From: an uncultured archaeon
GTDB taxonomy: Archaea; Asgardarchaeota; Thorarchaeia; Thorarchaeales; Thorarchaeaceae
Assembly (NCBI GenBank): GCA_964590575.1
Contig: CAZPWM010000026.1
Location: 1-37,030 of the forward strand
DNA length: 37,030 bases
Direction of reading: 5' to 3'
Each line of letters starts with the position of its first letter. Positions within the stretch are counted from its first letter, which is position 1. Below are positions 11,017-30,466 of the stretch, piece after piece. Position numbers and translations under genes: made by a program. The notes under the pieces were generated by a model. That model did not search any database. It was not told where the DNA came from and saw nothing but the letters and a program-made list of their open reading frames with translations.

Positions 11017-11039
11017 AGGATTGTTAGGGGTCTTCGAAA

Positions 11040-11996: not shown

Positions 11997-11997
11997 G

Positions 11998-12687: not shown

Positions 12688-13705
12688 AGAAACGAATAAT
12701 GAAACTCAGCAGTCAATGATCAGTACACAGAAGGTCATCTTGTTTGTAATATTCAGCATTGTTGTCTTCGCGTTTGTGGGACTCTACGGTCAAATAGGCG
12801 CAGTCATAGATGCTCTCGCGTCCATTCCATGGTGGTGGGTCATACCAACCATGATGGGCGTGTCATTCCTAAACTACATCATTCGATATGTGAAGTGGCA
12901 ATACTTTCTTGGTCGCATCGAGGTCAATCTCTCACATAAGGATAGCTTTAGTGTTTTTCTTGCTGGATTCACGTTGACAACAACACCGGGTAAGATTGGA
13001 GAAGCAATCAAAGGATACTTCATTCGAGACATTGATGGAACACCTGTAGCCAGAACGGTCCCAGTAGTAGTTTCAGAACGAGTAACAGATCTACTTGCTC
13101 TTGTTCTGCTTGCAATGATTGGGTTTGGAATTGGAGTGAACACTGGAGATCAGCTTCTCACAGTCCTAATGTTAGGTGGTGTTGTTCTTGTTGCAGCCAT
13201 TGTTCTCAGCCAGAAAACGTTCTATGAGAAGATACTCAAACGGTTCATGTCAATTGGTCCTCTGAAGCGCTTCGCGAGCAGTTATGATGAAATCGAGAAT
13301 ACGATGACTAGGACACTAGGTCCAAAACCACTTATCCTGAGTACCATTGTCTCGATCCCTGGTTGGTTCATGGAATGTCTCGAGCTATGGCTGCTGCTCA
13401 GCTTGTTAACAGTCACGCCTGCGTCAATCATTCTCTTACTGCAAGCTACGTTTGTTCATGCGACAGCTTCTATTATTGGTGCGGTGTCATTCCTACCTGG
13501 AGGAGTTGGCACATATGAAGCCACATCCGTCTTATTGATGCAACTCCTACTAGGAATTCCAGTTGCTCTTGCAGGTGCAGCCACAATTCTAATTCGCGTA
13601 GTCACCTTATGGTTCAGTGTCATTGTAGGATTTGTCGCACTTGGAATTGTAACCCGCGCCACAAGAAAACGTCGAGGGACTAGCGAGTTATCTGATAACT
13701 CTTAA
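12674..13705 (+). CDS. Lysylphosphatidylglycerol-synthase TM / flippase-like (UPF0104) membrane protein
   Basis: R.vKW..fL, TPGKIGEAIK, ERVTD, LPGGVGTYE and LIRVVTLW motifs, with about 8 TMs. Confidence 0.88.
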   Translation: MTAGEETNNETQQSMISTQKVILFVIFSIVVFAFVGLYGQIGAVIDALASIPWWWVIPTMMGVSFLNYIIRYVKWQYFLGRIEVNLSHKDSFSVFLAGFTLTTTPGKIGEAIKGYFIRDIDGTPVARTVPVVVSERVTDLLALVLLAMIGFGIGVNTGDQLLTVLMLGGVVLVAAIVLSQKTFYEKILKRFMSIGPLKRFASSYDEIENTMTRTLGPKPLILSTIVSIPGWFMECLELWLLLSLLTVTPASIILLLQATFVHATASIIGAVSFLPGGVGTYEATSVLLMQLLLGIPVALAGAATILIRVVTLWFSVIVGFVALGIVTRATRKRRGTSELSDNS

Positions 13706-14768
13706 CGAGCTCCAGCATCTCTCGTGCGCTCTTCGTCTTCTCGAAGTGTGTGCGAACAGGTTCGACCATCTTATCTAGATAAGTGACCATTGTATTCTTC
13801 AAATCAAGAGGATGAAGGTTTCCAGCTACATACGATTTCTCTAACTCCATGTAGCTTGTGAAGTCTATATCGCCACCGAATTTTGGTTTTCGCTCAACCC
13901 TCACGCTACTGTTACCACGGAAAACAATGTGTTTAGCATAGTCAAGTAAGGGATTTCCTTCTGCCACTTTTGGTGGACAGTAGGCGGCCATGACTTTCTT
14001 TCGAATATCGTCCACATTATCGTGAACAAAGATACTTGATTCGGGCTTGCTCTTACTCATTTTGGATGAGATCTGCACATCAAACCCCTTTTCCTCATCA
14101 AAACCCTCAGGTTCCGCTGCCCCCTCCAAGTTCATGAGCATGTGATGACTGATGACAACAGGTTTCCACCAACCTAGTTTTGGCCCAACCTCTCGTGCAA
14201 GTATATTGGCTCTGCGTTGGTCGAGACCTAGTTGAGTGATATCAGCTTCAAGATGGAAGATATCAGACACCTGCATCATTGGATAGAAGTATTGAGCAAC
14301 CTCTTTCATCTCGCCTTCTTTTCGCCCCATTATTGTAAGCGCTCGAGTAGCTCTAGCTACTGTTGTGTTCTTAGCTATTTTCACAACGCGAGACCAGTAG
14401 TCCACGGAGTCCATTGCTTCTGAAGCCCAGAGAAACTCCACTTTATCGGTTGGAACACCGGCAGCTTTCCAGACCTCAATGAAATACTCACCAACCTGCC
14501 TGATTTTCTCTAGATCTCCATCCATCTTATTGTTAATCCAAGCGAACCAGTCTGCCAGCCAGATCTTGAATCTAACTCCAGCTTTTATGAGATCCTTGAG
14601 AAGTAATGGCCTATAAACACCAAAAGGCATATGCGCTAACCCAGAGGGTTCGAATCCATCATATGCGATTGGATTCTTCTTCTCTTCCAAGAGCTGCTTT
14701 AGCTCAGGCATTGTGACTACTTCTTCACCTACTCCGGCGATTAGTTTGATTCGTTCATCGAGGTCCAT
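13680..14768 (-). CDS. tyrS: Tyrosine--tRNA ligase (archaeal/eukaryotic type)
   Basis: AYDGFEPSG, ADWFAWIN, YPMMQVSD, GLDQR, KMSKS and LHPLDLK motifs. Start set at MDLDERIKL. Confidence 0.96.
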   Translation of the reverse strand: MDLDERIKLIAGVGEEVVTMPELKQLLEEKKNPIAYDGFEPSGLAHMPFGVYRPLLLKDLIKAGVRFKIWLADWFAWINNKMDGDLEKIRQVGEYFIEVWKAAGVPTDKVEFLWASEAMDSVDYWSRVVKIAKNTTVARATRALTIMGRKEGEMKEVAQYFYPMMQVSDIFHLEADITQLGLDQRRANILAREVGPKLGWWKPVVISHHMLMNLEGAAEPEGFDEEKGFDVQISSKMSKSKPESSIFVHDNVDDIRKKVMAAYCPPKVAEGNPLLDYAKHIVFRGNSSVRVERKPKFGGDIDFTSYMELEKSYVAGNLHPLDLKNTMVTYLDKMVEPVRTHFEKTKSAREMLELVKSYQITR

Positions 14769-14809
14769 AATAGTTGAAAGAAATTCGTTCTCACTTAACT
14801 TTTCTCCAA

Positions 14810-14856
14810 GATGGAATGAAAAGAAGTAGATACCAGCTGGCACAAAACCAGCTGGT
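14810..14856 (-). terminator. Hairpin plus pyrimidine tract after the giant-gene pair
   Basis: ACCAGCTGG-7nt-CCAGCTGGT at 14832-14856, followed on the minus strand by TCTACTTCTTTTCATT. Confidence 0.5.
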
Positions 14857-14870
14857 TCTTTGTTGTATTC

Positions 14871-17800
14871 CTAGTCAATGTCGATACCAAGACTGCTCAG
14901 AAGAGCATCAAGATCAGCTTTTGAGAGACTCTTAGCTTCTTCAATTATGACATCAATCTCATCAACCATCATTCCCTTCTTGATGAGTTTCCTGCGCAAG
15001 TCTTCAAGCTCTTCAGGTCGCTGTTCTAGGGGTACATCCTCGAGAACTGGTTCACCCACTGGGGGTTTGGCGAGCACGTCAGCACGGCGAGCTTTCTCTT
15101 GGTCAATAACTTCCTTAAGGAAGCCTGGACGCTCACTAGCCTTCATTCTAGCTAAATCAGCTCGGAATGCCTCGATCTCGACAACACCAAGCCCAGTGAT
15201 ACCAGCGAGTTCTTCGAGTAATTCATTGACTTCTGGCACAGTTGTCTCAATCGGGTATTCAACAATCTCATCAGGTTCTTTTGATAGATTCATCGGTTTT
15301 GCTTCTTCATTGACAATACCCATCGCTATGCTTTGCCTACTAGGTGCTCTTGGAGGCTTTGGAATACGACCCTTACCAAGTGCTCGAATCATCCTATTCA
15401 AAGTTCGAATCTGCTTTGGAACACTCCAAACTCTTACGTAAGCCACGATGAGCAAAGCTATGAAAATCAGGGCGGTGCCGCCGACCATCGTTAATGCTTG
15501 CTGGAATTGCTGCTGCGCAGTAGTATCAGACTTGATTGTGAATATCAAATATTGTGAGAAATGATCCTCTTTTTCGAAGGTTATGGTAATGGTGAAAGTT
15601 CTTTCTCTTTCGACTCGGAAGAATAGTGTGTAGACACCATTCTCATCAAGGGTCCACTCTTCCAAGTATGTGATGTTGGTTTGACTATATGTAACAGTTA
15701 CATTGGCATCTGATATTCCAACTTGGTGGTCTAGATCGAAATAGGTAATCGAGATATCAAAGGTTGTTCCGGGCGATGTGTATTCTATGTCAGTGAGATA
15801 TCTCAGTTCAGTTAGAATTCGACGAATGGTGAGTTCAAGGTAGACTGGTGATGTGGTATACTTTGCTGAAGTAAACCCGATAGCAAAACTGTAAGTTCCG
15901 TAGGGGAGGTTACTGTCCAAAATCAAAGAATAGTTGCCATTAGGTAACAATTGCAACGCAAAATCACCAAGAGCATCGGAATGTGCGAAGCAATTCACAT
16001 CAACAATAGAAGAACCATCCAAGGTGTTGTTGACTAAGTATTCAATCTCAACACCTTCGTTCACAGGAGCTGATAGTTGAATTGGGCCTAGTATCTCAGT
16101 GGGAGTAGCATAGATCTCTATCTTTGTCGTGGTTGTTCTTGCAGTGTAGTTCGTAAGACTGAATTGTACAACAATATCATAGACGCCTGGAGTTGTCAGA
16201 GTTATGTCAACACTAACCAGATAATAACCGTTGAGTAAATCAATCACTGGAAGAGAACCGCCATCCCATGAAGCGACAACAGTCGCACCAGGGATTGGTA
16301 CTTTATGCTGATCGTCATAATAGTAGAAGGTGTAATTCTTCTGGGAACCAAAATATCCAGATTGAAGTGGCGTGTCTACTGAAGAAAGCGTGGGGATTGG
16401 TAGGATTGTTACAATGATAGATTTGATACCAGTAGCATACCCATCCTTTATTGCGATTATTCGCAGATATATCGACTGAGCTGCTAATGAGCTTACATCA
16501 ATAGTTGCGCTATATGTCCCATTCCCCCAAGATGTTAGGTTGCCTGTGAGACTTCCAAGTGTGTAGGTCACATTAGCACCAGTGACTAGAAGTGCATGGT
16601 ATGTGTCATTGAACACTACCAGAATGTCAAGCGTGTCTCCAAAGAAGACGTTCAACAATGTGCTTCCATCAGATAGAGCAAGAGTAGTCGGAATTGGTGT
16701 CACGCTGATGTCAATGGTGGTTTCAAGAAATGCATGATTGGGTGCTGTTGCCCTTATCGTCAAAGGATACTGACCAATCGCAAATCCAGTTACATCGACA
16801 GTTCCAGTGTAATAACCAGGAGTACCAGTAGGAGTCATTGGATAAACGGTTCCGTTCCATTCGGCGGTAACCGTCGCGCCAGTCACGGATGTATTAGAAA
16901 CCGTATCATTGAGATAGACAGTAAAGCCTCCTGTTGTATCTATGATAATATCATAGAGGGAGAACTCAGGTATTATCTGCCCAGTCGCTTTAGATACGAC
17001 CAGTGTGAATGTTGTCTGTCGTTGCTGATAGAACTGTTTAGTTACTGTGAATTGAGGTTTGTAAATCCCATAGTCTTCAATAGATGTATCAAGCAGAATG
17101 CCATAGAATCCGTTTCCAAGTTCTGAAACTGGATGCACCATTCCATTCCAGAGAAGCGTCGCAGTCATCCCTGTTACTGGAGTGTTATAATAGGGTTCTC
17201 GAACTTGGAATGTGATATTAAGAACTTCACCCCAATCACCATAGTATGCTGTCTTGGACAGAAATATCTCAACAGTTGCTGCTCCAGGTTGAACAGATAC
17301 GGTAGCAATTGCACTGTCGTAGAATGGCTTCTCAGCCCAGATTTGAAATATATGATTCTCTGCAAGAAGGCCAGTGGTATTGAGCGTAATCTTGTATACA
17401 CCATTACCAATTTCCTCAATTTGATAGCTTGTGCCAAATAGAAGAGTCCAGTTTGTGACGATGGACGCACCTGCTAAAGGCACATCGTGATCGAAGTCGG
17501 TCAGAGTGAGTATGACCTCGATTGGAACTCCAACAGCTGTGCTTCCAGCAGGAGGTGCTTCAGCCAATAATGATGTCTGAATATTTTTGACTGTTGCAGG
17601 AACATTTAGAGTAGTTCTAGTCGCATAGAAGGGAGAACCGGTCTTGCTCATAGTCAAATCAAAGTAGACAGTTCCAGTGTTGCCGAAGATTGTGCTATTG
17701 ATGTAGATTCTGTAGGTTCCGCCAGCTTCACGAACAAGCTGATAACCTGAAAGTGTCCCATTAACACTTGTAATTAGGAGAACTGCATCATCAATTCCAA

Positions 17801-20800
17801 GACCAGTGAGATAGTCTATGTAACTGAGCTCGATTGTTATATTGTCATAGTAAGGAGTATCCACAACCAATGGGAAGAGGATTTGCGTTGGTCGTTCAGT
17901 TGTTGTAACTCGAGTCACAGTATCTCTTGGTGCATAATAAGGCTCTCCACTACCAGTATCAATAGACAATTGAATCTCATATCCAGTTACTAGAGCGGTA
18001 GGATTAAGGATTGTAGAAGCGAATGATATCTCATAGTATGTTGGATACTCAGTTAATACATAATCAACAGACGCAATAATAGTATGTGAAGGGCCATGGG
18101 ATAATGTGATATTGGTTTGATCGATGGCAATCTTTGTACCAAGTAAGAAGTCTGTATACTTGAACCTGAATACAACATTCTCTAGAAATGCTACCTCTCC
18201 AGGCGTCTTGGTGATCAGAATTTGAGTTGTCCTTGTGGTAACCCGCGCAATCACATTAAGAAACTGTGGTAAGTAGAATGGTTCTCCTGTGAATGAAACA
18301 GAAACAGATAGTGCATAAGGACCTGGTGAACCAAGCGCTACTGTGTCTATATCGATTACATACTGTCCTGAACCAATGTAAAAGACCCAATAGTTTGAAT
18401 TTAGTATCAATGAGCTTGTTCCGTTTCCAGTTACAACAATGTTAGCGCCGCTAACACCTCTACCTGTGCTATCATCTATGTAAATCACGACGAAAGTAAC
18501 ATTTGCCTGATAGGGCGCGGGGTCAGGGCTATCATACCCAACCTGTGTAGAACGCTTCAATATCGAGAAATCAAAGATATCAATTGCTGTAGCATAATTT
18601 GAATTTGTATGAACGATTGAAGCATTCACCTGATATACGCCATCAGATACGAAAGCAGTTGTATTTAGAATTACTAGAAAGTGTCCATTCCCAATAGAGA
18701 TGACCGTGTATTTACTTGAATCTACATCAAGTGTCAATGTACCAGTCATGCCAGTTGTTGTGCCAGCTACTAGATCAGTATAGACAAACTCTATTGTGAC
18801 ATTATTTCCCCATTGACCTGGTGCAAATGAAAGATGAGTTAGCTGAGTACTTCTTAGAGTCACAGTTACCGTAAATACATGGCCTCCAACAGCCGCATAG
18901 AATGGGATTCCTGTCCAAGTTACATTGAGGTGAAGAATGTGAGTACCTATACTAGGTAACGTTGCTGTGTCAATCATTACTGAAAATTCATGTAATAAGA
19001 AATCATAGGTAACATTAAAGATGACTCCAAGCTCGTTAATGGAAACTTGGAGCTGAATTGAATCATCTATCTCTGTGTTTGTCAGTGCGTCTATGTAACT
19101 AAATGTAAGCTCCGCCCATTCACCATAGGCTGTTGATGGGACCGGTGCATAATCCACATACGTTGGTCGATCTAGTACTATCAAGGATACAACCATCGTC
19201 TGGTTCTCATAAAGCGGTGATACTCCCTTACTCCACATGATGTCAAGCTGGAATCTGAAAGTGGTTGTGTCTGGAAATAGTGAGCTATCCAGAAGGAAAA
19301 TATAGGTTCCAGGAGTACTTGAGGATTCGTAGATTGTGAAGTCACTCTGTGTGACTGAATGACCAAGGTCCAAGGGAGTAATCTGGAGCAATACATCGAA
19401 TGTGCTGTTGTCAATCCTGTCAAGTCCAATGGCGTCCCAATAAACTGCGGTGAAGTTGAAGGAGTTCAGATAATAGGTCGCAGTCGGGGCTAGTTCAAGA
19501 TAGAGATCCGTGTCAGTTCCTGTAATCTTGACCGTAGTCACGATCGTCTGACTATAGAACTTATCAACTACACCAGTCCATTCTATAAAGATGGTCAAAT
19601 CTTTTACACCAATGCTGCCCCATTGATCACTAAGGAAAGTGATATTGTAATGTCCCAACCCAAGTGAAGAGTCAGTACTTACATAATAAAGGCTCGAAAT
19701 ACCTGGTGATGTAACGGTGATTCGAACTTCTCCAGTTACATTTCCTATACCAACTCGTAGGTCTGTGTCTTGATAGAACACTAGGATACTAATTGTGTCA
19801 CCATATTGCGTCTGTGAAACAGGCTTGTCCAGAATAAAGAGGGTATTTCGTTTTCTAATCTCTATACCAATATCGAAGGTGTGATTCTGATGGTTACCTT
19901 TCATCACATTGAATGTCACAACATAGAGATCATCACCCACTGTGAGTGGGTCTTCATTCTTGGTGTAGATTGTGATATTATAAACGCCTGCTGTTCCTGT
20001 TTCAATTACTGTATAGTTCTTATCACCGGATTGATGGAAATCAGTCCAGTTGCAAGTTATTGATGCATTAGAACCAGAAATAGGAGTATCATGATCCGTA
20101 TCGGTCCAAGTGAATAAGAATGAAGAAGCTTCACCAACTGGGATTGATAGCTGATTTGATGTATATTTTATAGAGTTATAGATCTCCCGAACTTCTGCAT
20201 ACATCACCATACTCTGCGGTTCAATATATGGTCCGGTTGCATACACACTGATTGGATAATCACCAATTGGTAGTCCTGACGTGTCAAGTACAAACTTATA
20301 CTGTCCTGATCCCAAGGGCGTCATTGTATATGGGTTTGACCAATCACACCAGACGGTTGCAGTAGTGATTCCAGTTCCATTCACATTCTTAAAATTGACA
20401 GTGAAGGTTTGATCATCGTTTACAGGACCTGAGATACCTGGATACTCTGGCGAAGTGAGTGTAGCTGCATAGTTCACATTTATAGTCAAGGCTGTAGCGG
20501 ATGGATCATAGTTGGGATGAGCCCAATCAAGATCCATCACGTAATGGCCCTTACCTGGAAGACCTGAGGTGTCAATGACTTTCGTGTATTGGCCATTACC
20601 ATTGTCATCAAAGGTATCGGTTCCTAAGACCCAATCCAGTGTCAAAGTCCCGCCAGGTACTAGAACCGAACTGTCGGTGTCTGTCGTTTCCAGAATAATG
20701 AGTAGTAGGTCACCGAATGTGACATTAGTCAACATAGTACCAATTGCATCAGTCGGATATAGTAGTTCTATATCAGAAGCATGAGTGACCTTGAAGGGTC

Positions 20801-22622
20801 TCTTGAAGAAACCACTTGAGGTCCAGTCACCACCAACTCCAATGTCGTGGCTAGAAGCTTGGACCATCCAATCACCAGCGGTCGCATTGGCGCCGCTAAG
20901 AGTGAATGTTGTAGTGGTCGCATACCCAGTTCCATCTACTGTAGATGTTAGAGTTAGCCACTCTGATTCATCTGGCCCAATGATTGTGATATTCACATCT
21001 GCTCCATTGAACTGAAGTCCAATGTAAACACGAGCTCTTGTTGTGGCTCCAGCCCTGAGATTTACGTTCCGCTCCCAAGTACCACCCACTGGTTCCCAAA
21101 GCTCCAAGTCTGAGATCATATTCGGAGACGTGCTAAGAACTCGCCAGTACCCGTACCGTCCCGGTTCGTTTGTAATGTCATAAGTTGAAACATTGAGATA
21201 TCCATCACCAGCATTACCACCACTCCACCCTGATGTAAGATTTGAAGTCGGTGCGAGAGGTTGCGCAACAAACGTGACATCTCGATTAGCAGGTAATGTT
21301 TCATTGAAGAAATACAGATTTGCATAGCCAGTTGGGATGTCAGCACGGAAGTAGGACGTGAATCTAGCTGAAGTTCCATTTGATATCGTGAACCGTTCCC
21401 CAAATGCTGTGGGGTTTATTTCTCGGTGACTGGGTATATCTAAGCTTCTAGCGAACATGTTGACATTGATATCAAAATCAATGTGTATCTCGTTGTCGGG
21501 ATTGGGTGTTGAAGGAATAGGAGTCCATGAGAAGGTAAGAGGGACAGGATTGGTAATCCATGGACTTCCAGGAGTTTGAGTTATGGAACAGGCTCCGCGG
21601 GCGGCTCCGTCGCTGATATCTAGACCATTCATTTGGAGATTTATCTCACTTGGATCAACGTAGGTCTTCATGAATAGTTCAATGTTATCAAATCGGGCAC
21701 GTGGATGTATGTTTGGTGCATAGCCTACACTTGCCAGGGAAACAAGTCCTACTTCTGTTGTGACCGTTGAGTCTCCAGGCAATCCGAAGATTGAAGGACT
21801 CACACTAACTAGACCAGAGTTGTACCATGTTTCCTCAGCATCAATTTCCTCAAACACAAGATTCCAGATTTCTACACCTTCAACACTAGCGTATACACGA
21901 AACGAACCAGTCATGCCATAATGGGAGTCATCCTGTGTATCCGCCCAATAGTCTAAACGTAATCCAGCCCATACTACGGAGCCTCTGGAAACAGAAGTGT
22001 CTTGATCATATGCGGCTCTATCATTGGTATCGTAGTAGAAGGGTTGACTACCACTGTTTGAATCGATATCGACTTCAATGCAATCGTCGTTGAGACCGTG
22101 CCCATCATCACTCCATAATATTGTAGGTGTGCTATAAGAACCAACATTGAGTATTGCATTATTCCAACCATTTGCATTTCCTTGGAATCCAGGATTTGTA
22201 ATCCACGTACGATTCTCAGTAAGGTCGTTAATACTGACTTGTGCTTCATATGCTTCCCAATCTAATCCTGTTGGAACGTTTGCTTGGACACTTGTAGTCC
22301 CACTGCCGGGGACATATGTCATCTGCTGGTCATTAAGGATGTTTGTGCTGTTACCATATTCTGAACCAATCAGGGGCGAGCTGATACCATTCCACGCAGT
22401 CCAGCCCTGCTCAGTTAGAATATACCGCTGAAGTATTTCATTGGGGGCAAGTTCGATGAATTCGCCATTTCCGATATCCACCAATCGAGTGTCTTCTATG
22501 ATTGAACCGCTGGCATCAGGTATAGTCGAGGCAGGAATATAGCCTTGCGGAGTCACAAATATGGGTGCTAGCATTAATGCAAGGAGAAGTGCAATTGGTA
22601 TGAAACGTCGTATGTTCCTCAT
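14871..22622 (-). CDS. Giant single-pass surface protein B (2583 aa): signal peptide, N-terminal beta-rich head, Ig-like repeat stalk, TM, cytoplasmic helical tail
   Basis: N-terminal signal and ~100-aa repeats (F/Y-x-D...I-x-GA...GxGxY-x-I-x-(L/I)DT...GxY). Many N-x-S/T sequons. TM GGTALIFIALLIVAYV and a ~190-aa charged tail. Confidence 0.85.
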   Translation of the reverse strand: MRNIRRFIPIALLLALMLAPIFVTPQGYIPASTIPDASGSIIEDTRLVDIGNGEFIELAPNEILQRYILTEQGWTAWNGISSPLIGSEYGNSTNILNDQQMTYVPGSGTTSVQANVPTGLDWEAYEAQVSINDLTENRTWITNPGFQGNANGWNNAILNVGSYSTPTILWSDDGHGLNDDCIEVDIDSNSGSQPFYYDTNDRAAYDQDTSVSRGSVVWAGLRLDYWADTQDDSHYGMTGSFRVYASVEGVEIWNLVFEEIDAEETWYNSGLVSVSPSIFGLPGDSTVTTEVGLVSLASVGYAPNIHPRARFDNIELFMKTYVDPSEINLQMNGLDISDGAARGACSITQTPGSPWITNPVPLTFSWTPIPSTPNPDNEIHIDFDINVNMFARSLDIPSHREINPTAFGERFTISNGTSARFTSYFRADIPTGYANLYFFNETLPANRDVTFVAQPLAPTSNLTSGWSGGNAGDGYLNVSTYDITNEPGRYGYWRVLSTSPNMISDLELWEPVGGTWERNVNLRAGATTRARVYIGLQFNGADVNITIIGPDESEWLTLTSTVDGTGYATTTTFTLSGANATAGDWMVQASSHDIGVGGDWTSSGFFKRPFKVTHASDIELLYPTDAIGTMLTNVTFGDLLLIILETTDTDSSVLVPGGTLTLDWVLGTDTFDDNGNGQYTKVIDTSGLPGKGHYVMDLDWAHPNYDPSATALTINVNYAATLTSPEYPGISGPVNDDQTFTVNFKNVNGTGITTATVWCDWSNPYTMTPLGSGQYKFVLDTSGLPIGDYPISVYATGPYIEPQSMVMYAEVREIYNSIKYTSNQLSIPVGEASSFLFTWTDTDHDTPISGSNASITCNWTDFHQSGDKNYTVIETGTAGVYNITIYTKNEDPLTVGDDLYVVTFNVMKGNHQNHTFDIGIEIRKRNTLFILDKPVSQTQYGDTISILVFYQDTDLRVGIGNVTGEVRITVTSPGISSLYYVSTDSSLGLGHYNITFLSDQWGSIGVKDLTIFIEWTGVVDKFYSQTIVTTVKITGTDTDLYLELAPTATYYLNSFNFTAVYWDAIGLDRIDNSTFDVLLQITPLDLGHSVTQSDFTIYESSSTPGTYIFLLDSSLFPDTTTFRFQLDIMWSKGVSPLYENQTMVVSLIVLDRPTYVDYAPVPSTAYGEWAELTFSYIDALTNTEIDDSIQLQVSINELGVIFNVTYDFLLHEFSVMIDTATLPSIGTHILHLNVTWTGIPFYAAVGGHVFTVTVTLRSTQLTHLSFAPGQWGNNVTIEFVYTDLVAGTTTGMTGTLTLDVDSSKYTVISIGNGHFLVILNTTAFVSDGVYQVNASIVHTNSNYATAIDIFDFSILKRSTQVGYDSPDPAPYQANVTFVVIYIDDSTGRGVSGANIVVTGNGTSSLILNSNYWVFYIGSGQYVIDIDTVALGSPGPYALSVSVSFTGEPFYLPQFLNVIARVTTRTTQILITKTPGEVAFLENVVFRFKYTDFLLGTKIAIDQTNITLSHGPSHTIIASVDYVLTEYPTYYEISFASTILNPTALVTGYEIQLSIDTGSGEPYYAPRDTVTRVTTTERPTQILFPLVVDTPYYDNITIELSYIDYLTGLGIDDAVLLITSVNGTLSGYQLVREAGGTYRIYINSTIFGNTGTVYFDLTMSKTGSPFYATRTTLNVPATVKNIQTSLLAEAPPAGSTAVGVPIEVILTLTDFDHDVPLAGASIVTNWTLLFGTSYQIEEIGNGVYKITLNTTGLLAENHIFQIWAEKPFYDSAIATVSVQPGAATVEIFLSKTAYYGDWGEVLNITFQVREPYYNTPVTGMTATLLWNGMVHPVSELGNGFYGILLDTSIEDYGIYKPQFTVTKQFYQQRQTTFTLVVSKATGQIIPEFSLYDIIIDTTGGFTVYLNDTVSNTSVTGATVTAEWNGTVYPMTPTGTPGYYTGTVDVTGFAIGQYPLTIRATAPNHAFLETTIDISVTPIPTTLALSDGSTLLNVFFGDTLDILVVFNDTYHALLVTGANVTYTLGSLTGNLTSWGNGTYSATIDVSSLAAQSIYLRIIAIKDGYATGIKSIIVTILPIPTLSSVDTPLQSGYFGSQKNYTFYYYDDQHKVPIPGATVVASWDGGSLPVIDLLNGYYLVSVDITLTTPGVYDIVVQFSLTNYTARTTTTKIEIYATPTEILGPIQLSAPVNEGVEIEYLVNNTLDGSSIVDVNCFAHSDALGDFALQLLPNGNYSLILDSNLPYGTYSFAIGFTSAKYTTSPVYLELTIRRILTELRYLTDIEYTSPGTTFDISITYFDLDHQVGISDANVTVTYSQTNITYLEEWTLDENGVYTLFFRVERERTFTITITFEKEDHFSQYLIFTIKSDTTAQQQFQQALTMVGGTALIFIALLIVAYVRVWSVPKQIRTLNRMIRALGKGRIPKPPRAPSRQSIAMGIVNEEAKPMNLSKEPDEIVEYPIETTVPEVNELLEELAGITGLGVVEIEAFRADLARMKASERPGFLKEVIDQEKARRADVLAKPPVGEPVLEDVPLEQRPEELEDLRRKLIKKGMMVDEIDVIIEEAKSLSKADLDALLSSLGIDID

Positions 22623-25600
22623 TCTTCCATACCTCCTATCTCTCTGAGTAGAGCGTCTATTTCCGCTCTTGACAAGTTCTTGGCTTGTTCAATCATTAAT
22701 TCAGCCTCAGTTTCTTCAATGCCCATATTCAATAGTCGCTCCTTCAAATGGACCAACTCTTCGTCAGACAGGCGTGCTTCCTCAACCTCCGCAGGTACGC
22801 CTTCCTCTGCTACACGCTCAGCGTCAGCAAGCTCTCGAGCTCTCCTAGAACGTTCCTGTTTGAGGACTTCGTTTATGAAACCAGCTCTTTCGCTAGGTCT
22901 CATCTTATCGAGATCCTGACGTAATGTCTCAACATCTGTTGGTGTTAAACCAACAACAGTTGCTAAATCGCTAAGCAGATCCTCGACATCCATTGCAGCT
23001 ACATCAACTGTGGATATACTAATGTCATGCATAGATTTCTGAATTCCAATAGGTGACAAGTCTTCATTCATTATATCTAGAAGCATCTCACGCCGGAGTC
23101 GTACGTTTGCAGGCTTGGGTATTCTACCCTTGCTGAGAACTGCAATCATTCGTCTTATGATTCGCAAGAGACGAGGAACTGAAAGGACTCGGAAGTAAAG
23201 AGCAGCAAGAGCTGCAATTGCAAGAATTCCTATTGTACCAAACTGGAAACCCATCACTAGAGCCTCTTGTTCGGGGCTCAAAGCTGTATAGATGTCAAAA
23301 GAAAGAGAATACAAAGCATAATCGACCTTACTAACATCTATCTGAAGGGTATAGAATGCAAGATTAGGAGCACGGAAAGCCAAAGTATAAGTCCCGTTAC
23401 CATAATCTACGTCAAGGTTTAATTCTCGGACCAAACCCGGGTCAGTCGCAAAACTGCTTGTCGAGAACGGATTAAGGTCAGCATCTTGGATGGGAACATT
23501 GTGATCAGTATCCCAATATGTGAAGTTAACTAAGATTATGTCTCCAACTTGGATAATACTCGGGAGAGGATCCCAGTACACTTCTGTTGCTATTTCTCGT
23601 ATTGTCAGAGTTACAGAAACAACATTGCGAGAATAGTTACCACGAGAAATAGCTAGTGATAGTATATAGGGTACAACCCGATCTTGTAGCGGGGTTGGAA
23701 GGTTAGCTTCGCTGGGACCAAATAAGTAGGATCCATTGTTCAGGTTTGTTAAAACTGCAGTTCCAAATTCCCAAGTAATTGTTGCGTAAGCGTCTGTGAT
23801 CCATTCGTTATTGAGAGTGTCATTGAAGCTAAATATAATACTATAGTTATCATATACTGCAAATTCCGCTGTAAGAGAACCAATGATTTCAGTTGGAATG
23901 GGATTGACTAAGAGTTTCACAAGACCGTATGCAAAGTCATAGTTATCTTTTCGAAATGAAACAGTGATGTCATGAGGTACACCTCCAGCAGATACTACTG
24001 AAGTGTCAATAGTCAAGGAGTACATACCATTACCAAGTTCAACAAGTGAACCTCGTACGTGTTCAAGTGTGTAGTTTGTGATTGCACCAGGTATTCCTTC
24101 ACTTGCGTGTGTGTCGGTGAATATGAAGTAAAATGTAACAGTCTCCCCATAGTTTCCTGCTAAGGTAGCGGGAGTATTATAAAGCTCGATAGATGTTTCT
24201 ATGTTTTCAATCCTCAGAGTAAATTGTATTGAGGAGGGCGCAAACCCAGGTTTCACACTGGAAATGGAAACCGTCCATTCTTGAACACTAAGATATGATG
24301 TGTTGATGTAAGCACTGTAGTAGCCAGGTGTTCCTAGCTCAGTAAGATTTCCAACGATAGGCCCAACTCCAAACGAGATTGTTGCTCCATCAACAGGCAA
24401 GTTGAGATCGGTATTATTCAAATACACTGTTATGTTTGTAAAATCACGGAAGTTGACTGTTTCTACACTGCTAGATATTGGAACCAATTGGGTTGCAATC
24501 TCAGTGATCTCAATAGTCAGCTGATAACTAACACTCTTGAAATTCGCAGAAGAGGCCTGTACTAGGATCTGATGAGATCCTACCGATGCGCCGCTGACTT
24601 GAAAGTCAACAATATATTTTCCATCAACAGCAGACCAAGAGAGAACACCTGTTCCTCCCACCCAACTATAAGTCACATACCCAACATCTTCTATCGGTAA
24701 GCTACTGGAATATATGAGGTAATCAACCTCAATGGTGACAATTTGACCATTGACGGCTGTTTGGGGATCAAGAGAAGCAGTGATTTTAGCAGGTATCTTT
24801 TCAATCCTGATTTGGAAATCTCTTACTCGAGATTCAAAATTGACTAGGGATGATTCCACCGTAATTGTATACTCTCCAGAACTGAAAGATGAAGTGTCTA
24901 CAGTGCAGTTGTATAATCCATCTATGACCCAAGTCAGATTACAACTAATCGTAGCTATTGTGAGATTGACATATGCACCGATAACAGGCTGTCCTGTTAG
25001 AAGGTTTGTCACATTAGCCTGTATCTGAACCAAATCTCCCCAAACAGGATTCGGGGGTGAGAAAACAAGTTCAATCTGAACAGGTATGGCTGCAAGAAGA
25101 ATATCTGCAGATATTGATTGAGACAAGTATTGAGATTTAGTAGCATTGACAGTGAAACGATACAATTGTGCATCGAGACCTGATGTGTTGATTGCCATTT
25201 GATAGATACCAGGAGCTATTGTTGTAATCGTATAGTTTGTTCCATAGAGTGTTTCCCAATCAGTTGTGATAGTAGCACCTGCGATTCCTGTACCAAACGC
25301 TATTGCGGTATAGGTGATATTTGCATATACAACATCTCCAAGATAATAGGTGACACTCCCAGGTAGCACAAAGTTCAGTGACGTAGAAACAGGATTCACG
25401 TTGATACTGAATCTTAAGCCAGTGACATTACTATAGTAAGGACTACCAGTCCAAGTGAAGTTTGCTTCGAAGAAGAAACGGCCTAGTCCAGCTAGAGTGT
25501 TAGAATCGATCAGGGCGGTATATGTTCCATCAAGATTGTCTATCTCCCAGTGGGTGAAACTTGTTGTGTTCAGACACTTAATGGTCAGTGTAGCACCTGA

Positions 25601-28600
25601 TACAGGAGTACCAGTCAAGTAATCACTGAATCTAAGTAGGGCACTGATATTGAAGTAGTAGTATCCCGGTGGTGTCTGTAAGACAGTTCCTTGAGTGAAT
25701 CTACCTATAATTGTGACCTCAGTTGAAGTAGTGGAGTTAGAAAAGTACGGTGATACATCGCCCCAAACAAACTTCACGAAGATCGGATATTCGTCCACAA
25801 GTACTGATGAAAGAACCAATGAACTAATTGAGATTGTATAGACACCATTGGAACCAGTGATAGAATACTGAGAACTGGTGATAACTGTCCCACCATTATG
25901 AGTGAGAATAAGATTAGATTTGTCAAATGCAATTCCCGTATCAGTTAAACCATCAGTCACTGACACTTCAAAGGTCACATTTGCTAGGAAGGGCGTATTA
26001 AGTGGTGATTTTGTTACCGTTAAACTTGCAGGACGACGAGAGACCTCAATAGCAACGTTGCGAATTCTTGTTTGGTAGAATGGTTCACCTGCAGTCCAAG
26101 ATACTGTAATGGTTATTGAATATGGTCCAAAGTTACCAAGAGCAACAGTATCGATATGCACTGTATATGATCCATCCAAGTTATCATCAACCCAATAGTT
26201 CACACCAAGTTGAAGTGGTGTCGATGCTGCGGGACATGAAGCAATTACTTGCGCTCCAGAGATTCCTGAACCAGTACTATCATCAGTATAGTAAACTGTA
26301 ATATTTGCTTGAGTCAGAAAAGGTGCGAGATCTGGTAAGTCACTAGTCAGCTGTGTACGTCTTACCACAAGTGTGAGATAAAATAGGTCAGTGGCGTCTG
26401 CGCAGTACCTAGTTCCTCCGTAAAGAATTGAAACATTCACATTGAAGGTTCCTATTAATCCAAAGGCGGATGTATCAAGATGTAATGTATAGGTTCCATT
26501 CCCTATATCATCTACTGTGTAGTAAAACTCTAACCACGCATCAAGTGAGAGAGTACCACCATCCATATTGAGAGTGGTGTAGTCGTCTAGGTCTCTGAAT
26601 GTGAAATTGAGATTCAAAGTTCTACCAAATTCCATAGGTGAGTAGGTGCCATGAGTGAGTGATGTGTAACGCTCCCTAACACTAATACGAATCTGAACAC
26701 CAGTACGGTTCTGATGGAATGGAGCTCCTACCCATTCAACATTGATTGTAAAAGTGTGGCTTCCTGGTGTGAATGCTAATGTGTCCACTTCAATGATAAA
26801 GAGTCCAGTCGCATCACCATCATAATAGATGTTGAATGAATAACCGGGGATTGTGATTGTGAGTTGACTGCTGTTTTGAATTGGTAAGCCCGTCAATGAG
26901 TCTCGATAAGTCAAAGTTAGATTGACGGTTTCATCATATGGTGTCAGTGGGAGTGGATTCCAATCTACGGTTGTTAATCGTTGGCTGGCATAGACTGTTA
27001 CAACTATCACTTTATTGTTATAATATGGTAATTGTCCACTAGACCAGTTCAACCATACCCGGAGTTCACACTCACCAAGACCTGTCAATAAATCAGTGTC
27101 AAATGTAATTCTGTATTCACCAGGGCGAGTAGCAAAATCGATTTCTAAAATTATCATATCAGCTTGAGTTAAAGTTTGACCGGGGGTAAGGACATCAATG
27201 TAAATGTGGAGATTACCAGCATAGGGTCCGGTGGTATTAACAATGCCAGTATCACCACCAATATCAAAGTAGATTATGCTGAAAGAAACATCCTCGCCAA
27301 AAGCAGTATTAACTGGACTTTCACCGATATAGATGTCAGATGGAGCTGCTGTAATTCTCACTGTTGTTGATAACGAAAGGTTGGAATATTTCAGATTCAC
27401 TCCAACCCAGTTCATTGTTATATCAAGGTCTATGATTCCTGTGTCACCCCATTGATTTGCAGGAATGTGGATGATATAGAGACCCTCAGGAGATATACTA
27501 AACACATAGTAGGCGGGTGAGGGCAAAGTTGGACTAGTAATGATTAGTTCCACATATCCTCCCAGAGTAGTACCATTAACAATTCCAGTTGTTGCATCGA
27601 CATCGTAGTAAACGAGTCCCACTGTGATATTCCCAGTATACGGAGTCGGGTCAACTGCATTATTGAGATAGAATGAAGTTAGGTGTGTTCGAAGCTCGAC
27701 AGTGACAACAAAGGATTGATTCTGAGCTCCGTATTTTTCAACCATAAAGACAACATCGTAGGAATCCAGTATATCATCATCCATTGAATATATGACAACC
27801 TCATAAACACCGGGAGTTGCAGTTTCTGTAACTGTGTAATTCTGATCACCACTCTCGTGAATATCAGACCAATTGCAGCTGATTGCACTCGCGGCTCCTG
27901 TAATTGGTGCAAGAAAATCTGTGTCTCGATATGTAATCCTGAATGATGTAGTATATCCAACTGGAAGTGAAAGCAAGCTTGACGATGGAATAGCAGATGT
28001 ATGAAGCTCACGCACATTTACTGTTAGAATAATCGATCGTGATTCGAAGTAATTCTTAGCGGATGTAATCCGTATAGGGTATATCCCGAGGGATTCTCCT
28101 GTTGTATCTAGACTTAAGACATAATGACCAGCAGACTCCTCAACAATACTATAAGATTGAGACCAGTTGCAACTGATACTTGCAGTTGTCACAGGTTGAG
28201 CAAGCATATCCTCAAAATAGACATGCAGGTCTGCATCATAACCGCTTGGAACATTAATACCAGGTGCATCTGATGAATACAAGTCGGTATCATAAATCAC
28301 GTTCACAGTGAACGTTTCTAAGAGAGAATCGTAGTTTGCTTTAGTCCAGTCAAGGTCAACATCATACTGGCCATTTGATGAAAGGATGCTCGTATCGAGC
28401 GTAACACTATACTCACCAGTACCCATATCATTCACAGTACCTGAACCAAAATCACCAGAATAAGTCATCACACCAGCAGGAAGAAGGGCACCGTTGTCGG
28501 TGTCATTAACACGAAACTGAAGGAAGACAATTTCACCAAATGTAACATTGTAGCTCCATGTGGTTTGACCTGAAATCGGATATTTGACTGTCATTTGGGT

Positions 28601-30466
28601 TGAGTGGTCGATATCGAAACTTCGTGCGAAATATCCAATATTGTGGACTTCACTACCAGAAGCAGAATCATCAACAGACACATGTACTTCCCAGTTTCCA
28701 ACTCCTGCTGAAACAGCATCTAAATTAACATATGAGGTGATTGCATATCCACTCGAATCCACAACCACAGTTAGTGTATCCCATATTAGACCATCTGAAT
28801 CATAAATAGTGAAATTAACTTGGTCACCTTGATAACCTGTAGGAAGCACTGCGCGGAACCTAGTGTCTTCATTTGCTCTGAAAGTCTTGGTTTGTACCCA
28901 CTGTCCAATACCGTCATCCCATACTTGAAGATTGGTGACCATATTGGGTGAAGTCCCTCGTATCATCCAGAAACCATTCGGATCAGATAATCCAATTTCA
29001 TAGACGGATACATTGACCACGCCATCACCAGGGTTTCCCAAAGCCCAATTGCTAGTTAGGTTCGTATACCTATGGAATGGTTCCGAAACGAACGTAATAT
29101 CCCGATTCAATGGCAAGGTGACATTGAAGAAGAAGAAGTCACTATAACCACTTGGCACAGAAACATAATAATTCGTTTCCCAACTCACTTCCGTCGCGTT
29201 ACTCACAACATAATTGTCTCCTAACGTAATGAGTTCAGTATCATTAATCGTAGGTGTCTGTAACTTCCTGGCAAACACCCAGACATCAACATCAAAATTC
29301 ACAAAAATATCTAAATCTGGATCTGGAGGATTTGGAGTTGGAGTCCAAGAAAAGTTTGCCCAAGCAAGTCCTTGAGTCCATGGAGTGACGGGAGTGTATC
29401 TTGCGGTTCCTAGACCAAAAACTGGAATGGAACCCTGAAGGACATTGTCAACATCAACTCCATTCATTTGAAGATTGACATCTTCAGGTGTTGCCTTAGC
29501 AGTCACGTAAACTACAACATTGTCTAATCTTCCTTTTGGTATAATATCTGGTCTCCACCACTCAAGAGCAGTGGTTCTAAGTCCAGCCCAAATTGAAACA
29601 TTGGGTAATGTTAAGAAAGAAGTATCAATCTCAATATACCCGGTTGAGTACCAAGTCAGATCATCTTCAAAAGCGTCATATGGCAGGTGCCAAAGATAGG
29701 TTCCGCCATTATCTGGGTCACCAATTGAAACAAAGAGCTCAAAGAATCCAGTCATAATGCCCCATGCAACATCACCCCAATAATCCAATGAAATGCCAAT
29801 TGAAGATACGTCACCTCGATTAATGGAAAGGTTCTGAACCATGTATGATTTATCCCCAACTTCGTACCACCAACCACGTAGTCCTCCACCCTCATCATGA
29901 TAGTATCCAGTCATATCAAAATAAGCTGCACCATTTCCTGCTCCATGACTGTTAGCTTGCCATTCTGATGTGAAAGCATTATCATAGGTCGGACCACTCC
30001 CAAAGATTGAAGGTTCATCGTGGGATAGAAAAGTCCAGTTAGTGCTATCATCCAGTCCGGGATTTTCTATCCAGTTTCTATTCTCAGTGACACTTGTGAT
30101 ATTGGTGTACACATCGTAACCTTCCCAACCACTGCCCAGTGGTACGGATAGGTCAGCTGTTGTTGTAGTCTGACTTGCGGATACATAATCCATCTGTTTG
30201 TCAGTGAATGTATCAATGCGGATTCCTGATTCATCAGCCAACAACGGATCACCTGTTCCTGACTGTTGAGTTGGTATATCAGAAAGAGCATATTCTGTGA
30301 TCACTTCATCCGGAGCAATCTGAATGACCTCTCCGTTTGAGAGCTCGACAGTTTTGCTATCCGCAGATTCTTGTGTAAATGCCAATGGATTTTCAGGTAT
30401 GATAAGTATACCTAAAAATAAGGGCAGAAACACAATAAGCAAACCTATCATCTTCTTTAGCTTCAT
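22619..30466 (-). CDS. Giant single-pass surface protein A (2615 aa), colinear paralog of B
   Basis: Same architecture as B, with TM FGTIGILAIAALAALYF. Its stop overlaps the start of B (ATGA at 22622-22619). Confidence 0.85.
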   Translation of the reverse strand: MKLKKMIGLLIVFLPLFLGILIIPENPLAFTQESADSKTVELSNGEVIQIAPDEVITEYALSDIPTQQSGTGDPLLADESGIRIDTFTDKQMDYVSASQTTTTADLSVPLGSGWEGYDVYTNITSVTENRNWIENPGLDDSTNWTFLSHDEPSIFGSGPTYDNAFTSEWQANSHGAGNGAAYFDMTGYYHDEGGGLRGWWYEVGDKSYMVQNLSINRGDVSSIGISLDYWGDVAWGIMTGFFELFVSIGDPDNGGTYLWHLPYDAFEDDLTWYSTGYIEIDTSFLTLPNVSIWAGLRTTALEWWRPDIIPKGRLDNVVVYVTAKATPEDVNLQMNGVDVDNVLQGSIPVFGLGTARYTPVTPWTQGLAWANFSWTPTPNPPDPDLDIFVNFDVDVWVFARKLQTPTINDTELITLGDNYVVSNATEVSWETNYYVSVPSGYSDFFFFNVTLPLNRDITFVSEPFHRYTNLTSNWALGNPGDGVVNVSVYEIGLSDPNGFWMIRGTSPNMVTNLQVWDDGIGQWVQTKTFRANEDTRFRAVLPTGYQGDQVNFTIYDSDGLIWDTLTVVVDSSGYAITSYVNLDAVSAGVGNWEVHVSVDDSASGSEVHNIGYFARSFDIDHSTQMTVKYPISGQTTWSYNVTFGEIVFLQFRVNDTDNGALLPAGVMTYSGDFGSGTVNDMGTGEYSVTLDTSILSSNGQYDVDLDWTKANYDSLLETFTVNVIYDTDLYSSDAPGINVPSGYDADLHVYFEDMLAQPVTTASISCNWSQSYSIVEESAGHYVLSLDTTGESLGIYPIRITSAKNYFESRSIILTVNVRELHTSAIPSSSLLSLPVGYTTSFRITYRDTDFLAPITGAASAISCNWSDIHESGDQNYTVTETATPGVYEVVIYSMDDDILDSYDVVFMVEKYGAQNQSFVVTVELRTHLTSFYLNNAVDPTPYTGNITVGLVYYDVDATTGIVNGTTLGGYVELIITSPTLPSPAYYVFSISPEGLYIIHIPANQWGDTGIIDLDITMNWVGVNLKYSNLSLSTTVRITAAPSDIYIGESPVNTAFGEDVSFSIIYFDIGGDTGIVNTTGPYAGNLHIYIDVLTPGQTLTQADMIILEIDFATRPGEYRITFDTDLLTGLGECELRVWLNWSSGQLPYYNNKVIVVTVYASQRLTTVDWNPLPLTPYDETVNLTLTYRDSLTGLPIQNSSQLTITIPGYSFNIYYDGDATGLFIIEVDTLAFTPGSHTFTINVEWVGAPFHQNRTGVQIRISVRERYTSLTHGTYSPMEFGRTLNLNFTFRDLDDYTTLNMDGGTLSLDAWLEFYYTVDDIGNGTYTLHLDTSAFGLIGTFNVNVSILYGGTRYCADATDLFYLTLVVRRTQLTSDLPDLAPFLTQANITVYYTDDSTGSGISGAQVIASCPAASTPLQLGVNYWVDDNLDGSYTVHIDTVALGNFGPYSITITVSWTAGEPFYQTRIRNVAIEVSRRPASLTVTKSPLNTPFLANVTFEVSVTDGLTDTGIAFDKSNLILTHNGGTVITSSQYSITGSNGVYTISISSLVLSSVLVDEYPIFVKFVWGDVSPYFSNSTTSTEVTIIGRFTQGTVLQTPPGYYYFNISALLRFSDYLTGTPVSGATLTIKCLNTTSFTHWEIDNLDGTYTALIDSNTLAGLGRFFFEANFTWTGSPYYSNVTGLRFSINVNPVSTSLNFVLPGSVTYYLGDVVYANITYTAIAFGTGIAGATITTDWETLYGTNYTITTIAPGIYQMAINTSGLDAQLYRFTVNATKSQYLSQSISADILLAAIPVQIELVFSPPNPVWGDLVQIQANVTNLLTGQPVIGAYVNLTIATISCNLTWVIDGLYNCTVDTSSFSSGEYTITVESSLVNFESRVRDFQIRIEKIPAKITASLDPQTAVNGQIVTIEVDYLIYSSSLPIEDVGYVTYSWVGGTGVLSWSAVDGKYIVDFQVSGASVGSHQILVQASSANFKSVSYQLTIEITEIATQLVPISSSVETVNFRDFTNITVYLNNTDLNLPVDGATISFGVGPIVGNLTELGTPGYYSAYINTSYLSVQEWTVSISSVKPGFAPSSIQFTLRIENIETSIELYNTPATLAGNYGETVTFYFIFTDTHASEGIPGAITNYTLEHVRGSLVELGNGMYSLTIDTSVVSAGGVPHDITVSFRKDNYDFAYGLVKLLVNPIPTEIIGSLTAEFAVYDNYSIIFSFNDTLNNEWITDAYATITWEFGTAVLTNLNNGSYLFGPSEANLPTPLQDRVVPYILSLAISRGNYSRNVVSVTLTIREIATEVYWDPLPSIIQVGDIILVNFTYWDTDHNVPIQDADLNPFSTSSFATDPGLVRELNLDVDYGNGTYTLAFRAPNLAFYTLQIDVSKVDYALYSLSFDIYTALSPEQEALVMGFQFGTIGILAIAALAALYFRVLSVPRLLRIIRRMIAVLSKGRIPKPANVRLRREMLLDIMNEDLSPIGIQKSMHDISISTVDVAAMDVEDLLSDLATVVGLTPTDVETLRQDLDKMRPSERAGFINEVLKQERSRRARELADAERVAEEGVPAEVEEARLSDEELVHLKERLLNMGIEETEAELMIEQAKNLSRAEIDALLREIGGMEE

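Follow-up and report, generated by a model that had tools for sequence, protein, structure and literature searches.

Tandem paralogous genes for giant immunoglobulin-repeat proteins, predicted to be surface-anchored and retained as a pair across Thorarchaeia

The stretch of DNA analyzed here (the window) is contig CAZPWM010000026.1 of assembly GCA_964590575.1, 37,030 nt from an uncultured archaeon of the Thorarchaeaceae (Asgardarchaeota; Thorarchaeia), and the subject of this analysis is a pair of adjacent giant genes on its reverse strand, named A and B. The source genome amounts to 3.4 Mb on 194 contigs and is 91% complete; A and B together span 15.6 kb, or ~0.5% of it. An earlier note, made from the sequence alone, had described two ~2600-aa genes overlapping by ATGA, with a GGAGGT inside the 3′ end of the first, and both open reading frames (ORFs) and their junction were verified. 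The junction reads ...GGAGGTatggaagaATGAgg, with the ATG of B (22622-22620) running into the TGA of A (22621-22619). The proteins were also confirmed to be colinear but diverged paralogues: BLASTP aligned them from residue ~36 to the C-terminus with 878/2624 identities (33%), 52% positives, 5% gaps, and a score of 1231 bits, and the peptides quoted in the note were found in the translations.

Both proteins contained an N-terminal signal-like segment, basic and then hydrophobic, and a single C-terminal transmembrane-like segment, with a non-repetitive head and a rod of immunoglobulin (Ig)-like repeats in between. The number of repeats, previously guessed from length as roughly 17, was exactly 17 in A (residues 643..2381) and 17 in B (636..2352) with a period of ~100–110 aa, as counted with a hidden Markov model (HMM) iterated from one repeat. 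Among 59 full-length orthologues, the repeat HMM detected 16–18 repeats. An Ig-like domain is ~4 nm long, and the rod would thus reach ~70–90 nm if extended. N-x-S/T sequons were enriched twofold in the ectodomains (54 in A versus 27 in shuffled sequences; 47 in B versus 25), and each tail contained one, consistent with an extracellular part that is glycosylated.

An AlphaFold model of A residues 30–934, built on an alignment of 59 orthologues, had a mean predicted local distance difference test (pLDDT) score of 89 and consisted of an all-beta head and Ig-like beta-sandwich repeats. Structural comparison was carried out using VIA-align. The jelly roll within the head (residues 128–323) best matched the hyaluronan-binding module 4d0q (Z 11.9, root-mean-square deviation (rmsd) 2.9 Å, 137 residues), followed closely by the carbohydrate-binding module (CBM) CBM16 (2zew; Z 11.7), while CBM61, CBM4, CBM36, and CBM27 scored Z 9.6–10.8. 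The base of the head (residues 507–620) matched the macroglobulin (MG) domain of alpha-2-macroglobulin (2p9r; Z 11.3, rmsd 2.0 Å, 92 residues). The fold of the repeats resembled domains of filamin, invasin, and intimin (Z 7.2–8.3, rmsd 2.3–2.6 Å, 82–91 residues), and it also matched an RTX-adhesin tetra-repeat with Z 10.9. Foldseek, run with the same model of residues 30–934, returned generic multi-Ig arrays alone, at template modelling scores (TM-scores) of 0.1–0.2, and these included the Nitrosopumilus maritimus S-layer protein, complement C3, titin, desmocollin, and an RTX adhesin.

At the sequence level, no Pfam family matched A, B, or their parts at E ≤ 0.01, and relaxing the limit to E 10 for the tail, the head, and a fragment of three repeats brought up only noise. 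A profile of the head and repeats had no significant match among PDB sequences, the best (E 0.0059) being a 35-residue stretch of the MS2 coat protein. The layout given in the earlier note (signal peptide, non-repetitive head, Ig-like rod, one transmembrane segment, long tail) stands, on the basis of the HMMs, the models, and VIA-align. Structure prediction followed by Foldseek, which the note had suggested as a check, yielded the all-beta head, Ig-like repeats, transmembrane helix, and a helical tail, with generic Ig-array matches.

Alignments show the cytoplasmic tails to consist, in order, of a juxtamembrane motif, a three-helix module (the middle module), an acidic linker, and a second three-helix module at the C-terminus. 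The basic juxtamembrane motif reads RVLSVPR..R...KGRIPKP in A and, in general form, R-V-W/L-S-V-P-K/R..R...K-G-x-I-P-K-P. A model of A residues 2300–2615 (63 rows, pLDDT 84.6) showed one Ig-like repeat, a long transmembrane helix (2398–2428), and eight more helices, with the acidic linker modelled at low confidence (2556–2564). HMMs of the three tail parts all matched both A and B (E 1e-21 to 1e-30), and within the source genome they matched six proteins only, namely A, B, and the members of two other tandem pairs. Against 1.84 billion representative proteins, the tail profile found 155 matches at E ≤ 0.001, 94 of them at ≤ 1e-30, and in the long hits the match always lay at the extreme C-terminus of proteins of 2,000–5,500 aa. 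By sequence comparison, the tail is the best conserved part of A and B and is confined to giant proteins. The relatives are named "hypothetical protein" in databases, except that propeller-bearing forms of ~2,890 aa are called "6-bladed beta-propeller". A PDB sequence profile search with the tail gave nothing significant (best E 0.086), and the ESM Atlas held no usable match to it. Foldseek and VIA-align, run on the tail model, matched the Ig-like repeat alone; the helical tail had no match and was effectively not queried. A likeness of the C-terminal three-helix module to UBA or SAP/HeH-type motifs was considered, found no support from any tool, and is not claimed.

Table 1. Features of the A/B locus and its flanks (window positions; (-), reverse strand).
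Feature	Position	Strand	Description and basis
Gene A (P0001)	22619..30466	(-)	2615-aa giant type-I membrane protein; ORF and translation
A signal-peptide-like N-terminus (~residues 1-29)	30380..30466	(-)	Basic n-region, then hydrophobic stretch
A non-repetitive all-beta head (residues 30-620)	28607..30379	(-)	AlphaFold model, pLDDT 89
A beta-jelly-roll, carbohydrate-binding-module-like (residues 128-323)	29498..30085	(-)	VIA-align
A macroglobulin/Ig-like beta-sandwich, head base (residues 507-620)	28607..28948	(-)	VIA-align
A rod, 17 Ig-like repeats (residues ~621-2390)	23297..28606	(-)	17 HMM matches
A transmembrane helix (~residues 2402-2426)	23189..23263	(-)	Hydrophobic segment; helix in model
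A cytoplasmic tail, ~189 aa	22622..23188	(-)	Alignments, model helices
GGAGGT, Shine-Dalgarno-like, within the 3′ end of A	22631..22636	(-)	8 nt ahead of the B ATG; sequence
Gene B (P0002), paralogue of A	14871..22622	(-)	2583 aa; ORF, translation, BLASTP
B head (residues ~28-612), colinear with A head	20787..22541	(-)	BLASTP, alignment
B rod, 17 Ig-like repeats (residues ~613-2362)	15537..20786	(-)	17 HMM matches
B transmembrane helix (~residues 2373-2396)	15435..15506	(-)	Hydrophobic segment
B cytoplasmic tail, ~187 aa, three modules as in A	14874..15434	(-)	Alignments, HMMs
Upstream neighbour, 720 aa	30646..32808	(-)	Signal peptide, metzincin-type HExxHxxGxxH, C-terminal transmembrane segment
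Terminator-like element	14819..14855	(-)	16 nt past the B stop; CCAGCTGG, 7-nt loop, CCAGCTGG, T-rich run; read from sequence
Class-I Tyr/Trp-type aminoacyl-tRNA synthetase (aaRS) gene	13680-14843	(-)	Downstream of B; syntenic in genus

The distribution of the family was assessed from the tail, from the head, and from whole loci. A search with an alignment of four tails recovered 72 related loci, which were almost only from Candidatus Thorarchaeota metagenome-assembled genomes. The tail profile matched 24/24 other genomes drawn from the genus. In a 400-genome sample of the phylum it matched strongly in 82/85 genomes of the family and in the single genome of the sister family (1/1), and weakly (E 2e-14 to 8e-6) elsewhere, for example in the families f12 (17/19), f3 (4/4), and f9 (21/135). 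In one f12 genome, the weak matches corresponded to three tandem genes of >1390, 1515, and 2182 aa (G035; L122, C24:86000-104000), which share the Ig-like repeat type of A and B, the transmembrane segment, and a related juxtamembrane motif, but have a different tail that is helical, acidic, and contains short repeats of its own. The A head, which is specific to the A/B pair type, matched 65 of the 87 genomes of the class including the source genome, among them 22/24 high-quality genomes, and 17/17 genera were represented. Two head matches on one contig and strand, 7.7–8.8 kb apart, were counted by hand in at least 37 of these 65 genomes, and in the remaining head-positive genomes the ORFs mostly run into contig ends.

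We fetched 32 loci from 31 genomes for comparison. In all 32, A was followed by B on one strand. An ATGA-type overlap was present at 20/32 A–B junctions and a gap of ≤9 nt at 5 more (with genes called from the first ATG), so that the coupled arrangement first seen in the window extends to its relatives. No intact singleton was found among the loci examined. In several genera, the head of A, and not that of B, contained an insertion of ~290 aa, giving A orthologues of ~2,850–2,900 aa (L095, L096, L103-L107, L115, L117, L121). Precomputed Pfam matches (PF17170, PF01436, PF08450) identified the insertion as an NHL/SGL-type six-bladed beta-propeller.

A FastTree phylogeny of 66 full-length rows, including partial rows, separated 31 A proteins plus p1 and p3 of genome G075 from 31 B proteins plus p2 and p4 of the same genome, with a support of 100 on each side. 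The genome of another family was basal in both the A and the B clade, and the two topologies mirrored each other. Reciprocally exclusive, mirrored clades indicate that the duplication is older than the sampled radiation of the class and that the genes were inherited together. An old duplication kept as a coupled pair, which the earlier note had proposed to check through a survey and a tree, is therefore well supported. The outcome named there as refuting, homologues occurring mostly as singletons or recent duplicates, was not observed, given the mirrored clades and the lack of an intact singleton. G075 carries an A-B-A-B array (L110, L111; C22:1-34000), one pair for each of two ectodomain types described below, and the tails of its two B copies cluster together.

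Two further giant pairs were present in the source genome. One, on contig C13 (15330-42802; L011, L012), encodes proteins of 5180 and 3979 aa whose genes overlap as A and B do. The other, on C72 (2-16302; L013), encodes one protein of >3141 aa and a second of >2256 aa, which probably continues on C1 (2-2881; L014); this pair is split over contig ends, and we estimate its members at ~4,000 and ~3,200 aa. Each partner of both pairs had 19 repeats, and the heads differ from those of A and B. A quick IQ-TREE analysis of the shared C-terminal ~1,500 residues of 28 proteins, rooted at the midpoint, resolved each pair type as its own first clade and second clade (support 100), and did not recover all firsts and all seconds as groups. 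As each pair type forms its own (first, second) clade, the family appears to have repeatedly duplicated and kept both copies. The simplest reading of these sequences would be three independent tandem duplications, each kept since before the split of genera g1 and g25, although gene conversion early on between neighbouring copies could produce the same picture. Two minor observations concern these contigs. The end of C129 (L015) and the start of the C72 ORF have one peptide in common and the contigs probably join, and the 3979-aa protein on C13 contains the C-terminal three-helix module ~4–5 times.

A second ectodomain type was found at the same locus within the genus of the window, in four species (G005, G006, G014, and G018). 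Identity of these genes to those of the window rose along the protein, from 34–48% in the heads and 51–54% in the rod to 66–74% in the transmembrane and juxtamembrane segment and 79–84% in the tail; for the neighbouring genes, it was 64–72% (upstream gene) and 78–88% (aaRS). The full-length tree placed the genes of the four species with those of genera g25 and g27, whereas trees of the region from the transmembrane segment to the C-terminus united all g1 rows (support 98 for A and 99 for B). For the latter region, an approximately unbiased (AU) test rejected monophyly of the types (p 0.0086 for A, 4.9e-6 for B), with the caveat that the type groups were named after the full-length tree was known. 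In sliding windows, both A and B changed from resembling their type to resembling their genus at about residue 1900. The type, v1 or v2, was concordant between A and B in 31/31 pairs, which are not 31 independent events, while the intervening A tail follows the genus. Much of this mosaic pattern would follow from an ancestral A-B-A-B array whose tails were homogenised and whose copies were differentially lost. Co-selection of the A and B ectodomains is the more interesting alternative.

DNA of the A/B stretch occurred in salt-marsh and aquatic metagenome runs. In one sediment metatranscriptome run, contigs of 151–336 nt lay inside gene A with 0–2 mismatches. The RNA evidence consists of short Logan contigs, of which little was compared with gene B, and uncovered parts carry no meaning; we take it as a weak hint of gene A transcription.

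These results are best explained if A and B are giant type-I surface proteins, N-glycosylated and specific to Thorarchaeia, that are expressed and inherited together as a pair. Both would be exported by a Sec-type signal peptide and anchored by one C-terminal transmembrane helix. A rod of 18 beta-sandwich domains, one MG-like and 17 Ig-like, would project outward from the cell, with a distal head whose CBM-like jelly roll may bind glycans, and the helical tail of ~190 aa would presumably dock to a cytoplasmic partner. Whether the two proteins act together as one surface stalk or adhesion unit is, in our judgement, evenly balanced. At its simplest, such a unit would consist of a parallel hetero-oligomeric stalk with two different lectin-like heads on display, which could attach the cell to glycans of partner cells or particles, or else be a main component of the cell envelope. 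A physical A–B heterodimer is plausible from the sequence comparisons. A co-fold of the last repeat, transmembrane segment, and tail of A (29 rows) with those of B (30 rows), run without controls, scored 0.04 against a mark of 0.32, and this says nothing for or against binding.

Several observations weigh against this explanation. The joint action of A and B would rest on co-inheritance, equal repeat number, and concordant switching of types, and tight linkage with operon structure alone can yield co-inheritance, gene order, and concordant types, while an equal repeat number is the default after a duplication. The jelly-roll matches (Z ~10–12) speak to the fold class of the modelled domain rather than to a ligand. 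The pair is not universal and was not recovered from 22/87 genomes of the class; among these, the one-contig genome G049 gave only a weak head match (E 2.4e-8) and G073 only a fragment. At one locus (G063; L116, C3:351000-370999), A is split into ORFs of 1407 and 830 aa beside an intact B, which could reflect a pseudogene or an assembly error. The propeller in A heads, without a matching change in B, indicates that the two are not strictly symmetric. Lastly, no contig of the RNA run bridges the A/B junction, and carry-over of DNA is possible.

The same sequences could be read differently, and a possible though somewhat unlikely account is that A and B are independent paralogous adhesins or envelope glycoproteins that merely lie in tandem in one operon, each acting alone or as a homo-oligomer to provide two binding specificities. 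Tandem duplication is common in the family, as seen in the three pair types, the A-B-A-B array of G075, and the three-gene array of another Asgard family. The heads are strongly diverged (30–40% identity), and the propeller was inserted in A only, which also favour this account. Such independence is harder to reconcile with both copies, their order, and their overlap having been retained from a time before the sampled class diversified, with the lack of an intact singleton among the loci examined, or with types that agree in 31/31 pairs despite the different history of the A tail lying between the ectodomains. Pairs of retained, diverged neighbours also apparently arose three times.

Bacterial giant Ig-repeat adhesins (invasin, intimin, InvD/InvE, FdeC, and RTX adhesins) are comparable systems. 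They share with A and B a many-repeat Ig-like rod with a distal, in A and B putative, binding head, and the repeat folds of invasin, intimin, and FdeC matched the A repeat with Z 7.2–8.2 and rmsd 2.3–2.6 Å. Prokaryotic adhesins usually end right after their anchor, and those of bacteria are anchored by an outer-membrane barrel, a type-1 secretion plug, or a cell-wall sorting signal. In contrast, A and B carry a C-terminal single transmembrane helix with a cytoplasmic tail, and they had no match to Pfam Big or repeat families. The Giant1-5 proteins of Apilactobacillus kunkeei are very large extracellular surface proteins encoded by consecutive genes, according to the available part of the report (PMC12863079). 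They are bacterial, form a set of five genes rather than a pair, and, judged by that description only, are apparently unrelated.

Cell–cell recognition, in which A binds B (or A) in trans, the two ectodomain types act as alternative specificities, and the tail relays the contact, is a doubtful reading of the mosaic pattern. It would make A and B similar to eukaryotic paired polymorphic Ig-repeat proteins such as the TgrB1/TgrC1 allorecognition pair of Dictyostelium, which are single-pass proteins of adjacent paralogous genes, with Ig-like-fold repeats, highly variable ectodomains, and co-varying partners. The single pass, adjacent paralogy, Ig-like repeats, variable ectodomains, and partner co-variation are shared; A and B differ in being tandem with an overlap rather than divergent, and Pfam gave no IPT/TIG match in them. 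Recognition would account for two deep ectodomain types at one syntenic locus in a single genus, with heads at 34–48% identity and tails at 79–84%, as well as for tail trees that follow the genus with type monophyly rejected and a switch near residue 1900 in both proteins. The ancestral array with tail homogenisation and differential loss gives the same pattern without recognition. Furthermore, the genomes compared represent different species and not one population, and the type groups were defined after the full-length tree.

An extension of this idea, by analogy and to our minds just as improbable, is an Asgard receptor for cell–cell recognition and adhesion. In it, A and B would contribute their distal two thirds to a matched specificity cassette of two ancient, co-switched types that binds partner glycans or its counterpart in trans, while the genus-specific membrane-proximal part and the tails would couple contact to an intracellular partner such as the cytoskeleton or membrane-remodelling machinery, as a prokaryotic forerunner of eukaryotic two-chain receptors. 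Integrin alpha/beta is one such receptor, with two single-pass type-I chains, large ectodomains, and tails suited to intracellular docking. However, A and B lack an FG-GAP propeller and a beta-I domain by Pfam, their heads are composed of a jelly roll and beta-sandwiches, and there is no sequence match. Unlike A and B, the two chains of an integrin are not paralogous, the tails of A and B are much longer and helical, and an A/B dimer remains conjectural.

A role of A and B as principal components of an S-layer-like envelope or canopy, and not as adhesins or receptors, is very unlikely. The best Foldseek match was the N. maritimus S-layer protein (8c8o, E 4.5e-14), together with other Ig arrays, SlaB and SbsC were among the VIA-align matches, and the ectodomains are rich in N-glycosylation sequons. 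SlaA and SlaB of Sulfolobus (8qox) are likewise two co-encoded proteins, one of them membrane-anchored, and these archaeal surface proteins, like A and B, are strings of Ig-like beta-sandwiches. The fold likeness to 8c8o holds at the level of domains only, as the TM-score of just 0.16 reflects no more than shared Ig-like domains, and neither Pfam nor PDB gave a sequence match to S-layer families; a match to a characterised S-layer family had been named beforehand as refuting the heterodimeric receptor or filament idea. In addition, A and B are paralogous and both are anchored by a transmembrane helix with a long conserved cytoplasmic tail, and we know of no S-layer protein with such a tail of ~190 aa. 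The pair was not found in 22/87 class genomes including one assembled as one contig, and the source genome holds two further pairs with other heads, which is also difficult to align with a main envelope component.

The closest published counterparts are the aloposons of Heimdallarchaeum, mobile elements with the tandem giant genes Otus and Ephialtes (Wu et al. 2022, PMC8813620). In the part of that paper available to us, their traits are tandem genes for 3,000–6,000 aa, integration at tRNA genes, mobility, and four conserved upstream genes that include a MinD/ParA-like ATPase. It also notes in passing that two Thorarchaeota MAGs carry tandem giant genes, distantly homologous to one aloposon giant protein, which would favour A and B being cargo of such an element. 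Its figure concerns proteins >3,000 aa and may show the larger sister pairs. In its available part, neither the domain architecture nor the tail, phylogeny, or pairing of those Thorarchaeota genes is analysed. The likeness lies in two adjacent, mutually similar giant genes in an Asgard archaeon, whereas A and B (2,615 and 2,583 aa) fall below the aloposon size range and the other two pairs of the genome measure 3,100–5,200 aa. That A and B are cargo of an aloposon-kind element is hardly credible, and we rejected it, since ARAGORN found 0 tRNA genes in the window, Pfam scans found no MinD/ParA, integrase, or transposase family among its ORFs, the metzincin-motif gene upstream and the class-I aaRS gene downstream occupy the flanks and recur across the genus and in other genera, and the A and B trees broadly track genera.

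Apart from the brief remark in PMC8813620, the literature searched contained no account of this family, be it of its tail, its pairing, or its mosaic evolution. Huge proteins have been surveyed (PMC11573180), and the available part of that survey lists 3 Thorarchaeota proteins of ≥5,000 aa without further description. Giant Ig-repeat surface proteins as such were already known; what distinguishes this family is the unusual conserved cytoplasmic tail and the repeated, stable pairing. Their relevance lies in how Asgard archaea touch and sense other cells, which bears on models of the origin of eukaryotes. The lifestyle of Asgard archaea is believed to involve close physical association with partner organisms. 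A conserved and wholly unannotated family of giant type-I proteins, with a lectin-like head, an Ig-like rod, and a conserved tail, would suit the linking of outside to inside. It offers testable handles in pairs that apparently arose and were kept three times, rods of equal length, and ectodomains that switch together while tails follow the genus. If A and B prove to be independent adhesins, the work still provides a useful annotation of ~0.5% of the genome and of the larger sister pairs.

Genes flanking the pair were also inspected. The 720-aa gene lies directly upstream of A across a 179-nt gap and encodes the motif HETMHAIGFHH at ~residues 464–474. An orthologue was directly upstream of A in 20/32 loci, with the motif kept in 20/20. 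Pfam matched the protein only to Astacin, at E 0.41 and on the motif, and there was no PDB sequence match. The gene is single-copy in the genome and unlinked to the other two giant pairs; the product may be an accessory protease of the A/B pair.

Downstream of B, the aaRS ORF as listed starts at a GTG. Its orthologues start at residue 26 of this ORF, and an internal ATG is probably the true start; the hairpin and T-run behind gene B overlap the additional 5′ stretch. Adjoining the locus at 9937-13705 (+) is a same-strand run of genes for a DUF362 protein, a UbiA prenyltransferase, a PHP-domain protein, and an LPG_synthase_TM-family membrane protein, which may be a cluster for lipid or envelope modification. 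Toward the other end of the window, an ORF of 376 aa at 35262-36392 (-) has a leucine-rich-repeat-like first half and no Pfam match at E ≤ 0.001. The ORF at 36468-37028 (-) runs off the end of the window, and its opening peptide is the one with which a 1009-aa ORF finishes at the edge of contig C126, so that the two contigs are probably neighbours.

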